In this document: one piece after another, positions 5,618 to 55,653 of the stretch
How positions within the stretch are numbered: position 1 is the stretch's first letter
How the letters are laid out: every line of letters starts with the position of its first letter
Assembly (NCBI RefSeq): GCF_988242995.1
Contig: NZ_OZ547043.1
DNA length: 64,000 nucleotides
Strand: one strand, 5' to 3'
Translations under genes and position numbers: made by a program
Notes under the pieces: model-generated
Told to the model about the DNA's origin: nothing
The model's input: the letters and a program-made list of their open reading frames with translations, nothing else
The model's database searches: none

Positions 5618-5667
5618 TAATCTCTATGCTCCGGCTGAAGGGATGTTTTTGCCGGACACAAAGGATA

Positions 5668-53495: not shown

Positions 53496-53753
53496 ATGAA
53501 AAACGTAAAAACCCTCATCGCTGCGGCGATTTTAAGCTCCATGTCATTTGCCAGCTTTGCTGCTGTCGAAGTTCAGTCAACGCCAGAAGGCCAACAAAAA
53601 GTCGGTACTATCAGTGCTAACGCGGGGACAAATCTGGGATCGCTGGAAGAGCAGCTGGCGCAAAAAGCGGATGAGATGGGCGCAAAATCATTCCGTATTA
53701 CTTCTGTAACCGGTCCAAATACCCTCCATGGAACAGCAGTAATTTATAAATAA
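53496..53753 (+). CDS. bhsA: multiple stress resistance protein BhsA (YcfR, DUF1471)
   Basis: Track ORF 85 aa with signal peptide; matches recalled BhsA. Confidence 0.93.
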   Translation: MKNVKTLIAAAILSSMSFASFAAVEVQSTPEGQQKVGTISANAGTNLGSLEEQLAQKADEMGAKSFRITSVTGPNTLHGTAVIYK

Positions 53754-53779: not shown

Positions 53780-54500
53780 CTGCTGATTTTTTCCCCGCGA
53801 CATGCCGTGTCGCGGGGATTTTTGTGCACAGAAAACCCCCAGCTAGGCTGGGGGTTCCGGAAAGCTTTCAGCTTTGAGCCAGTTATTAAAACCCCTTTTG
53901 ATTTGTTAAAACACTTTGCGGTCTGGCAACTGCAAGTGTCAAACAAGAAATCAAAAGGGGGTCCCAATGGGGAACGAAAAGAGCTTAGCGCACACCCGAT
54001 GGAACTGTAAATATCACATAGTTTTTGCGCCAAAATACCGAAGACAGGTGTTCTACAGAGAGAAGCGTAGAGCAATAGGCAGTATTTTGAGAAAGCTGTG
54101 TGAGTGGAAAAGCGTACGGATTCTGGAAGCTGAATGCTGTGCAGATTATATCCATATGCTTGTGGAGATCCCGCCCAAAATGAGCGTATCCGGCTTTATG
54201 GGATATCTGAAAGGGAAAAGCAGTCTGATGCTTTACGAGCAGTTTGGTGATTTGAAATTCAAATACAGGAACAGGGAGTTCTGGTGCAGAGGGTACTACG
54301 TCGATACAGTGGGTAAGAACACGGCGAAGATACAGGATTACATAAAGCACCAGCTTGAAGAGGATAAAATGGGAGAGCAGTTATCGATTCCCTATCCGGG
54401 CAGCCCGTTTACGGGCCGTAAGTAACGAAGTTGGATGCAAATGTCAGATCGTGTGCGCCTGTTAGGGCGCGGCTGGTAAGAGAGCCTTATAGGCGCATTT
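53780..54500 (+). mobile_element. IS200-type insertion sequence (IS200/IS605 family); ends approximate (about +/-25 bp)
   Basis: Contains an IS200 TnpA ORF, a 5' hairpin with flanking T-runs (53793-53817) and an RBS-sequestering stem-loop (53893-53959); the bhsA-ldtC gap is about 790 bp against a much shorter gap recalled for K-12. Confidence 0.8.
53967..54425 (+). CDS. tnpA: IS200 transposase TnpA (HUH/Y1 single-strand transposase)
   Basis: Track ORF 53916..54425 trimmed to ATG 53967: MGNEKSLAHTRWNCKYHIVFAPKYRR... 152 aa, near-identical to recalled IS200 TnpA. Confidence 0.92.
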   Translation: MGNEKSLAHTRWNCKYHIVFAPKYRRQVFYREKRRAIGSILRKLCEWKSVRILEAECCADYIHMLVEIPPKMSVSGFMGYLKGKSSLMLYEQFGDLKFKYRNREFWCRGYYVDTVGKNTAKIQDYIKHQLEEDKMGEQLSIPYPGSPFTGRK

Positions 54501-54506
54501 GAAAAA

Positions 54507-54540
54507 CCTCCGGCTATGCCGGAGGATATTTATTTTTATC
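54507..54540. terminator. bidirectional hairpin terminator next to the ldtC 3' end (probably the native bhsA/ldtC terminator)
   Basis: CCTCCGGC-tat-GCCGGAGG hairpin 54507-54525 with an A-run before and ATATTTATTTTTA after. Confidence 0.55.
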
Positions 54541-54546
54541 CAGGAT

Positions 54547-55509
54547 TTACAGAGTTTGTGGGCTCACTTGATGACGGCGGACATCCACCGGCATCCCGGA
54601 ACGGACATCCATCACATGTTGCATCACTTCAGCGTCAGTTTGTGCTGCATCTTTAAATGATTGCATTGCGCTATTCAGCGTAATTGGCAGCAGCTGCGGA
54701 TCGTCATCAATCTTCTCTGACAGCGGCTGATGTACTTCAACCAGACGCGCACCGTTTGGTTCGGCAGAGACTTTTATCGGAGTGTTGATGATATTCACTT
54801 TGGTGCCTGGGGTGACCTGGCTAAAGAGTGTTTTGATATCGTCATCACGCAGACGAATACAGCCAGAACTTACCCGCATGCCAATGCCGAAATCGGCGTT
54901 CGTACCGTGAAGCAAATAAACACCGCCATAGGCCGCCAGACGAATCGCATGATGGCCCATTGGGTTATCCGGTCCAGCCGGAACTACCGCAGGCAACTCA
55001 ATTCCCTGTGCTTTATAACGGGCGCGGATGTTTGCCGTTGGCGTCCAGGTTGGGTTTGCACGTTTGTCTGAAACGGTGGTCACCATTGTCGGTGTCAGCG
55101 TGTCACCACCCAACTGACCAATGCCGATGGGATACACGGTTACCGAATTTTTACCCGGCGGGTAGTAATAGAGACGCAGCTCCGCAATGTTGATCACAAT
55201 GCCTTCGCGCGGCGCGTCTGGAAGTAGGGTTTGCAACGGGATCGTTAACACGCTACCCGCGCGCGGTACGTAAGGATCAACACCGGGGTTAGCCTGTAAC
55301 AGAGCGAGAAAGCCGACGTTATATTTTTTGGCGATGGCTTCCAGAGAACCACCGTCATTTTCCACCACATGAAATTTGTTTTCGCCAACCAGACGACTGC
55401 CCGCTGGCGGCAGCGGCCAGGTGTTGGCTTTTGCCGGTAGCGCCAGCGCCACGGCAGCGGCGAACGTAAAAAACGTTAGCCAGCGAGAAAAACGCGTTTT
55501 GATCATCAC
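54547..55509 (-). CDS. ldtC: L,D-transpeptidase LdtC (YcfS)
   Basis: Track ORF 54547..55512 (TTG); GTG at plus 55507-55509 gives 320 aa starting MMIKTRFSRW; start ambiguous among TTG/GTG/ATG within 3 codons. Confidence 0.9.
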   Translation of the reverse strand: MMIKTRFSRWLTFFTFAAAVALALPAKANTWPLPPAGSRLVGENKFHVVENDGGSLEAIAKKYNVGFLALLQANPGVDPYVPRAGSVLTIPLQTLLPDAPREGIVINIAELRLYYYPPGKNSVTVYPIGIGQLGGDTLTPTMVTTVSDKRANPTWTPTANIRARYKAQGIELPAVVPAGPDNPMGHHAIRLAAYGGVYLLHGTNADFGIGMRVSSGCIRLRDDDIKTLFSQVTPGTKVNIINTPIKVSAEPNGARLVEVHQPLSEKIDDDPQLLPITLNSAMQSFKDAAQTDAEVMQHVMDVRSGMPVDVRRHQVSPQTL

Positions 55510-55653
55510 CAAAAATCCATAATAAATATAAGGTTATTGTAATAAACAGATAAGCCTGAATTATGGATGGTGACAGTGTCGGATAGTGCAGGGAAGTGCA
55601 AAGAATTTGTAAATGTTGCAGATGGGGGCGCAGAAACGCCCCCAATCTAACCA

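Follow-up and report, generated by a model that had tools for sequence, protein, structure and literature searches.

The interval 53793-53969 of the window (the whole stretch of 64,000 nucleotides analysed here) very probably runs across the left boundary of an IS200C element, which has inserted 3' of the bhsA terminator's T-tract. Two structures upstream of the transposase gene tnpA had been put forward in the original prediction as conserved parts of IS200. The second, a long inverted repeat, is the published IS200 stem-loop masking the ribosome-binding site, and is already well known. The first, a 25-nt hairpin (hereafter hairpin 1), is the intrinsic terminator of bhsA itself; it lies outside IS200, and the element is joined to the last T of its tail. 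What the interval holds is known IS200 biology, with one of the two structures rightly identified and the other mis-assigned. The features discussed below are collected in Table 1.

The ORFs and BLAST comparisons place the window in the E. coli chromosome, with the gene order comR-bhsA-(IS200C)-ldtC-mfd, the 152-aa transposase ORF occupying the gap that separates the convergent bhsA and ldtC. The unoccupied site of K-12 reads ...CCCCGCGACATGCCGTGTCGCGGGGATTTTTTTATCC... and keeps hairpin 1 followed by T7, while the occupied site in the window reads ...GTCGCGGGGATTTTT, then the element from GTGCACAGAAAACCCCC to GGAGGATATTTATTT, then TTATCC.... There is no target duplication: T7 in K-12 stands against T5, the element and TT in the window. 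Four further copies, three on E. coli plasmids and one being IS1541A of Y. pestis, consist of the same segment of 712 bp or about 710 bp with unrelated flanks on both sides; the independent plasmid copies align across positions 1-712 of the query, and the right junction is set by the four independent copies. Since the K-12 empty site and the independent copies agree on the segment, the element is delimited as given in Table 1.

Its size of about 700 bp, the lack of terminal inverted repeats and of a target duplication, and the presence of a subterminal hairpin at each end are all characteristic of the IS200 group, and, judged from the sequence, the boundaries are as expected for the IS200/IS605 family. 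The earlier assignment of the element to IS200 is thus upheld, by the Pfam family PF01797, by the Rfam family RF01405 and by the label that PGAP gives the copy at the same site in strain EC556, "IS200/IS605-like element IS200C family transposase". The insertion is missing from K-12 and from most E. coli genomes. Among 5426 complete E. coli genomes, 95 have an occupied site with at least 80% of the query covered; the remaining matches listed at this locus, K-12 among them, show an alignment gap of about 711-712 bp.

Table 1. Positions, strands and supporting evidence of the features at the IS200C insertion site
Feature	Position	Strand	Basis or remark
bhsA	53496-53753	+	stop codon 53751-53753
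bhsA intrinsic terminator	53793-53823	+	host; hairpin 53793-53817, A + T5 tail 53818-53823
IS200C element, 712 bp, GTGCACAG...GATATTTATTT	53824-54535	+	K-12 empty-site comparison, independent copies
IS200 left-end perfect palindrome AACCCCCAGCTAGGCTGGGGGTT = AACCCCCAGC-TAG-GCTGGGGGTT	53834-53856	+	nts 11-33 of this copy
Small hairpin AAAGCU-UUC-AGCUUU	53861-53875	+	folds; second helix of RF01405
Inferred art200 (STnc490) antisense RNA gene, ~90 nt	53887-53977	-	homology; start nt 153/154 = 53976/53977
tnpA 5'UTR stem-loop hiding the Shine-Dalgarno sequence	53892-53960	+	nts 69-137; folds, Rfam, covariation
Shine-Dalgarno sequence AAGGGGGU of tnpA	53955-53962	+	same sequence quoted in PMC4513863
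tnpA, 152-aa Y1 (HUH) transposase	53967-54425	+	ORF table, Pfam PF01797 Y1_Tnp
Right-end hairpin CCTCCGGC-TAT-GCCGGAGG and terminal tail ATATTTATTT	54507-54535	+	hairpin 54507-54525
ldtC	54547-55512	-	convergent with bhsA

Hairpin 1 is real and strong, as had been claimed. Its sequence, CCCCGCGACATGCCGTGTCGCGGGG, grows in RNAfold to 12 bp (53792-53818) at -23.0 kcal/mol (z = -6.2), and none of 200 shuffled sequences folds equally well. It begins 40 nt after the bhsA stop codon, with T6 before it (53787-53792) and A and T5 after it, and its 12-bp stem with eight G-C pairs followed by T5 (T7 at the empty site) is that of an intrinsic terminator. At the K-12 empty site it is found base for base (...GTCGCGGGGATTTTTTTATCC). 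Because it lies outside the element and is unchanged at a site from which the element is absent, hairpin 1 is host DNA, the very outcome that the original prediction had named as telling against itself. A bidirectional terminator requires, on one strand, an A-tract 5' of the hairpin and a T-tract 3' of it. Hairpin 1 has T6 on its 5' side, its minus strand reads hairpin and then A6, and the terminator scan called it on the plus strand and gave no call on the minus strand; the earlier reading of the T-runs on both sides as a sign of bidirectional termination was wrong.

The position of the second structure agrees with experimental work on the Salmonella element. According to Ellis 2015 (PMC4513863), the 707 bp of IS200 hold a bidirectional terminator, formed by an inverted repeat at nts 12-34, a start of tnpA transcription at about nt 40 and a repeat at nts 69-138 that sequesters the Shine-Dalgarno (SD) sequence; the antisense RNA art200 (STnc490) begins at nts 153/154 on the opposite strand (PMC4513863). 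With nt 1 set at 53824, these features map, respectively, to 53834-53856, about 53863, 53892-53960 and 53976/77. The comparison with the published left-end structures that had been proposed as a check therefore bears out the stem-loop at nts 69-138, whereas the terminator at nts 12-34 is another palindrome than hairpin 1.

The folds of this copy give the same picture. Taken as a whole, the 201-nt interval forms four hairpins at -87.4 kcal/mol (z = -6.5); hairpin 1 lies outside the element, and all four appear in both the minimum free energy (MFE) and the centroid structures. The 87-nt fold of the stem-loop reaches -34.8 kcal/mol (z = -5.2), with none of 200 shuffles as good, and places the SD inside a stable stem, as the original prediction had expected of a folding check. 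The lower stem of 13 bp, CCCCUUUUGAUUU (53892-53904) with AAAUCAAAAGGGG (53948-53960), is the same in the MFE and centroid structures and takes in SD bases 53955-53960, covering GGGG; the tnpA ATG follows at 53967. Above it are UU/AA pairs (53906-07 with 53945-46) and two upper stems, one joining 53911-16 to 53934-39 and the other 53918-22 to 53929-33, that close on the loop CUGGCA (53923-28). A fold begun at the approximate start of tnpA transcription gives -43.9 kcal/mol with the SD pairing unchanged. The long repeat described earlier thus exists, though its arms, placed then at 53893-53908 and 53940-53959, were off by 1-2 nt and are CCCCTTTTGATTTGTT (53892-53907) and AACAAGAAATCAAAAGGGGG (53942-53961). 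The Rfam model RF01405 matches positions 53834-53957 of the plus strand over its full length (model positions 1-124 of 124) and scores 144.6 bits, the gathering score being 56; its helices are the very ones described for the published leader. These results and the covariation described below agree that the repeat buries the tnpA SD.

Comparative data extend the structure far beyond this copy. Relatives of TnpA with 66-92% identity were taken from 80 loci in Enterobacterales, Vibrio, Desulfovibrionaceae, Sutterella, many Firmicutes and Saccharibacteria. A covariance model trained on 13 proteobacterial leaders found the stem-loop directly 5' of tnpA in about 65 further loci, those of Firmicutes and Saccharibacteria included, with E-values from 1e-10 to 1e-3. 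In the resulting structure-fitted alignment of 67 distinct rows, in which the fitting biases the counts toward the structure, 91% of cells are standard pairs versus 43-57% with slid partners, and every pair of the lower stem shows double changes (U-A to C-G, G-C to A-U); alignment columns 8 and 122, for example, hold UA in 41 rows, CG in 16 and AU in 3. A MAFFT alignment not fitted to the structure gives 88.7% of cells pairing against 40-58% when slid, with seven pairs that change on both sides and an observed value reached by none of 500 shuffles.

The anti-SD follows the SD in these leaders, CCCC facing GGGG in Enterobacteria and CUCC facing GGAG elsewhere, and the likeliest partner of the SD lies 48-76 nt 5' of the start codon in 68 of the 68 loci scored. 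The paired probability of the SD is in modest excess, 0.84 versus 0.63 in a shuffled-upstream control. This measure discriminates poorly, since G-rich SDs pair with almost anything, and for that reason the position of the partner and the covariation were used instead. The G.U pair 53920:53931 is conserved in 60 of 67 rows, which fits folding of the sense RNA, as the antisense strand would have an A.C mismatch at this place. Finally, from Proteobacteria to Firmicutes the leaders keep an almost unchanged apical hairpin, UGCGGUCUG(G/C)CAACUGCA.

This last feature is an argument for another purpose of the conservation, namely that the leader helix is kept mainly for pairing with art200, for a stable trans-acting sRNA (5'tnpA or tnpA-90) or for the single-stranded DNA of transposition, with SD occlusion as a by-product. 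The constancy of the apical hairpin exceeds what base pairing needs and is not explained by SD occlusion; the apical loop is the nucleation site for art200 pairing (PMC4513863), the Salmonella leader is processed to stable sRNAs of 110 and 90 nt that regulate invF and other genes (PMC12594629, PMC5435999), and the reverse strand folds equally well. We nevertheless consider it unlikely that such a role is the main one. The SD is always in the 3' arm, whether it reads GGGGG, GGAGG or GGGAG, with matching changes in the 5' arm; the conserved G.U pair speaks for the sense RNA rather than for DNA or antisense RNA; and mutations in the lower stem, beyond the region of interaction with art200, raise the 30S toeprint 20-fold and tnpA-lacZ expression 50-fold, independently of art200 and Hfq (PMC4513863). 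Because of the co-variation of anti-SD and SD and of these published mutants, SD sequestration is the primary supported role of the leader helix. It is compatible with the other leader roles as additional functions, and the published work shows that they act independently.

The element has left-end structures of its own that the original prediction missed, the hairpins at 53834-53856 and 53861-53875; of the two IS200 structures it had placed upstream of tnpA, the stem-loop stands and the first belongs to the host. The palindrome at 53834-53856 starts 17 bases past hairpin 1. A repeat search gives it 10-bp arms with 100% complementarity, it folds to -18.7 kcal/mol and it forms the first helix of RF01405. 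The left-end hairpins of 63 relatives fall into 25 different sequences. Perfect palindromes make up 24 of these, and compensatory changes occur at positions 5, 7, 8 and 10 of the stem. The palindrome of this copy, at the place of nts 12-34, is the counterpart of the published bidirectional terminator. On the plus strand it is followed 3' by only UU and then CCGG, and because this is no canonical U-tract, its activity as a terminator is taken from published experiments on Salmonella IS200. If IS608 is a guide, the palindrome probably serves in addition as the subterminal hairpin that TnpA handles. The tnpA transcription start, as placed approximately by the literature, falls within the small hairpin at 53861-53875.

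At the other end of the element, the right-end hairpin gives terminator scan matches on both strands (-15.9 kcal/mol, z = -4.4), and from its sequence looks like a two-way terminator. It was also observed that ldtC, transcribed from the minus strand, after the insertion meets the IS right-end hairpin and then UUUUU on that strand, and the IS200C insertion may supply the terminator of ldtC.

The transposase itself is a single ORF of about 150 aa, as in the Y1 transposases of this group, and matches PF01797 with 127.1 bits against a cutoff of 23, over profile positions 2-121 of 121. At residue 61, where the HUH motif has its first His, it carries Tyr (TAT for CAT, 54147-54149), so that the motif at residues 61-63 reads Y-I-H and is not intact. 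Histidine is found there, as H-[IV]-H, in 76 of 80 relatives and in the same-site copy of EC556. The catalytic tyrosine is named Y125 in Ellis 2015 (PMC4513863). By this substitution, H61Y, the TnpA of the window copy is probably inactive or catalytically impaired, and the copy is therefore likely to be a non-autonomous one with an intact regulatory leader. The substitution concerns whether this copy is active and leaves its homology untouched.

The position of art200 in Table 1 was assigned by homology to the starts mapped in Salmonella and on an E. coli plasmid (PMC4513863). The RNA would be complementary to the SD, the first three codons and the stem-loop, and its strand folds to -35.5 kcal/mol (z = -5.4). 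The promoter scan gave no sigma-70-like site for tnpA or for art200; upstream of the latter, the minus strand has TTTACA-18 nt-TAAGCT, which is below the threshold of the scanner. The absent sigma-70 site is consistent with the "weak, undefined promoter" of the publications, and adds no positive support to it. As to the name of the Rfam family, STnc490 is antisense to tnpA (Sittka 2008, PMC2515195; Ellis 2015, PMC4513863), yet RF01405, which is named for it, scores far better on the sense strand than on the antisense strand, where it reaches 26.8 bits. The RF01405 model also takes in the left-end hairpin, a region outside art200.

Host hairpins of the kind found here abut the left ends of IS200-group elements generally, and differ in sequence between copies. 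At the junction the consensus reads T(-5)T(-4)N(-3)T(-2)T(-1) followed by G(+1)T(+2), and one tandem copy was inserted exactly after the right-end hairpin of another copy. It is true that one locus cannot tell chance from preference and that terminators are common in the gaps of convergent genes; that the neighbouring hairpin is a coincidence of this locus, with no bearing on IS200 biology, is nevertheless highly improbable. A strong hairpin (-12 kcal/mol or lower within 50 nt) with TTNTT at the junction is present at 83 of 87 independent left junctions from many species, and the mean MFE over 45 nt is -20.4 kcal/mol at the left flanks, compared with -7.4 kcal/mol for randomly chosen positions (p about 5e-29). 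A strong hairpin together with a T-run occurs in 36 of 52 flanks and in 1 of 1040 controls, and of the background T-run ends in those loci, only 1.8% come after such a hairpin. For these counts MFE and T-count replaced a strict motif terminator caller that had found 27 of the 52 flanks; it under-called, allowing no bulges and having a T-window that extended into the IS. Moreover, a preprint (10.1101/2025.07.22.666184) reports that terminator-like sequences are enriched upstream of insertion sequences, most of all in IS200/IS605, and reads this as limiting expression.

Thus terminators look like the insertion target of the IS200 group. That TnpA of this group actively chooses them, by recognition of a terminator's single-stranded hairpin and T-tract (hairpin-TTNTT/GT, the slash marking the junction), is a tentative proposal that we would put forward rather than defend. 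The hairpin and T-tract of the target perhaps mimic the right end of the element, where a hairpin is followed by its terminal tail. Were the targeting true, the supposed left-end hairpin of the original prediction would be a footprint of target selection and not a part of the element. The near-universal association fits targeting and the survival of harmless, transcriptionally shielded insertions alike. When, on the model of the guide/target rule of IS608, the 4 nt 5' of the left-end hairpin were compared with the final 4 nt of the flank, only the invariant AA/TT corresponded, and the variable positions differ even between copies of one element. Insertion next to terminators may already be present in the older literature on IS200/IS1541 insertion sites.

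The reading of the 25-nt hairpin and the long repeat as two conserved IS200 structures, the first being the bidirectional left-end terminator, has in its favour that hairpin 1 is strong, stands directly 5' of the element with a T-run after it, and that such a terminator is published for IS200 (PMC4513863), but it is refuted by the unchanged hairpin in element-free K-12, and has against it the wholly different sequence at this place in four other IS200C/IS1541 copies and likewise at the 87 independent flanks, the mapping of the published nts 12-34 to 53834-53856, and a minus strand on which the hairpin is followed by A6 and by no T-rich tract. Hairpin 1 as an overlooked part of a longer insertion sequence was also considered, and rejected: the flank hairpins differ from copy to copy, and the K-12 empty site keeps its own.

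Together with the Salmonella IS200 work, drawn here from Ellis 2015 and 2017 and from Beuzon 1999 as cited there, these structures suggest a layered regulation of tnpA. Transcripts of bhsA would be stopped by the host terminator, for which the structural basis is given above. Most of the read-through that leaks past it would then be stopped by the palindrome of the element, whose structure is likewise seen in this copy and whose efficiency is known from Salmonella, where it stops about 85% of transcripts coming from upstream (PMC5435999). According to the Salmonella literature, a weak tnpA promoter would yield few transcripts, starting at about nt 40. Those transcripts are predicted from the structure to fold so that the SD AAGGGGGU is out of reach of the 30S subunit. 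Finally, antisense art200 and Hfq would, on the Salmonella data, provide independent further blocks. For the E. coli copy, the values of about 85% termination and 20- to 50-fold translational repression, as well as the art200 starts and the action of Hfq, are carried over from Salmonella IS200 by analogy.

A close known counterpart is IS200 of Salmonella enterica, which belongs to the same family and shares the leader layout, the SD, the ATG at nt 144 and the antisense region; RF01405, built from Salmonella sequences, matches the E. coli copy in full length. The palindrome occupies nts 12-34 in Salmonella and 11-33 here, and the stem-loop 69-138 and 69-137, respectively. E. coli IS200C differs by its length of 712 instead of 707 bp, by a few substitutions in the upper stem and, in the window copy, by H61Y in TnpA; unlike Salmonella IS200, it has a T at 53915 that makes the 6-bp upper helix perfect. 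IS1541 of Yersinia pestis and Y. enterocolitica is about 88% identical in DNA over the whole element, has the same left palindrome and right hairpin, and is likewise joined to a host hairpin and T-run. It differs in species, in copy number, slightly in the first 10 nt (GTGCCCAGAA) and in a right end that is one T shorter.

IS608 and ISDra2 belong to the IS200/IS605 family and use the "peel and paste" mechanism of Y1 transposases (Barabas 2008, as cited in PMC5027513). They resemble the IS200 group in the Y1 HUH transposase, in subterminal hairpins in place of inverted repeats, and in insertion 3' of a short target, which abuts the left end, without duplication. Their targets are TTAC for IS608 and TTGAT for ISDra2, compared with the consensus TTNTT and a preceding hairpin in the IS200 group; IS200 differs further in that its left-end hairpin is a perfect palindrome and that it lacks tnpB. 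Class C bacterial group II introns reportedly insert after intrinsic terminators as well, an observation attributed to Robart, Seo and Zimmerly in 2007. They are likewise mobile and stand directly 3' of Rho-independent terminator hairpins, but are retroelements with an RNA-based mechanism, and the likeness is one of niche choice only.

These findings bear on both the annotation and the biology of the IS200 group. The left boundary of IS200 belongs after the T-tract of the host terminator, and the adjoining hairpin is not to be counted with the element; matches to RF01405 are to be read as the sense-strand leader of tnpA. The stem-loop that hides the SD is a textbook case of what keeps IS200 nearly immobile, and the compensatory changes that have kept it, from Enterobacteria to Firmicutes, show the design to be ancient. 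If the siting beside terminators is mechanistic, it would explain how these elements spread without harm to genes and without being transcribed from outside.

Terminator-like hairpins of the host are a recurrent feature at the left ends of the IS200-group elements. In 83 of the 87 independent junctions, drawn from many phyla, the left end adjoins a GC-rich hairpin of the host with a T-run behind it; the hairpin sequence differs from copy to copy, and the junction consensus is TTNTT|GT. This sample comprises the left junction in the window (53793-53824) and those of the IS200-group copies at loci L003, L006-L083, and L084-L137. In contrast, only 1.8% of background T-run ends have such a GC-rich hairpin on their 5' side. 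This pattern suggests that intrinsic terminators serve as the insertion niche or target of IS200-group elements.

The apical hairpin of the tnpA leader (53918-53933), UGCGGUCUG(G/C)CAACUGCA, shows almost no sequence variation in the leader alignment A6, all the way from Enterobacteria to Firmicutes and Saccharibacteria; as judged from this alignment, its conservation is far beyond what base pairing would need. Antisense complementarity is by itself insufficient to require such invariance. The apical loop CUGG matches the YUNR U-turn motif.

The Rfam model RF01405, named STnc490, scores 144.6 bits on the sense strand, that of the tnpA leader (53834-53957, +), and only 26.8 bits on the antisense strand (53794-53856, -). 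In the literature, however, STnc490/art200 is antisense to tnpA, and the left-end hairpin lies outside its span (Ellis 2015, PMC4513863; Sittka 2008, PMC2515195). What RF01405 models thus seems to be the leader of tnpA and not art200. Other Rfam matches in the window are usual E. coli features, confirming its chromosomal context.

Other Rfam matches in the window
Feature	Position	Strand	Basis
rne 5'UTR element	27363-27699	-	Rfam match at gathering score
SraB sRNA	29560-29728	+	Rfam match at gathering score
PyrC leader	5618-5667	-	Rfam match at gathering score

Codon 61 of tnpA in the window (54147-54149) is TAT, so that the HUH catalytic motif reads Y-I-H, one C-to-T change. The motif is H-[IV]-H in 76/80 TnpA relatives, as well as in the copy at the same site in E. 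coli strain EC556 and in plasmid copies. This change probably inactivated the transposase. Degenerate copies were observed at other loci: the one in Vibrio plantisponsor (L012, about 960-1001) is devoid of the entire SD stem-loop, its left-end hairpin being fused near a mutated start codon (ATC), and the left-end palindromes of L005 and L010 are truncated.

On the other side of the insertion, the right end of IS200C and the stop codon of ldtC (54547-54549) are 11 nt apart, and on the minus strand (54507-54549) the right-end hairpin of the element is followed by TTTTT. This right-end hairpin is the first predicted terminator-like structure 3' of ldtC after the insertion; the inverted bhsA hairpin, which it displaced downstream of ldtC, has no U-tract in the ldtC direction. 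An IS200 pair in tandem was found in the viral contig IMGVR_UViG_2814123192_000002 (L132, 6163-6899), where the second element starts directly 3' of the right-end hairpin of the first copy and ATATTTATT. By this arrangement, the right end of IS200 can itself act as an insertion site.
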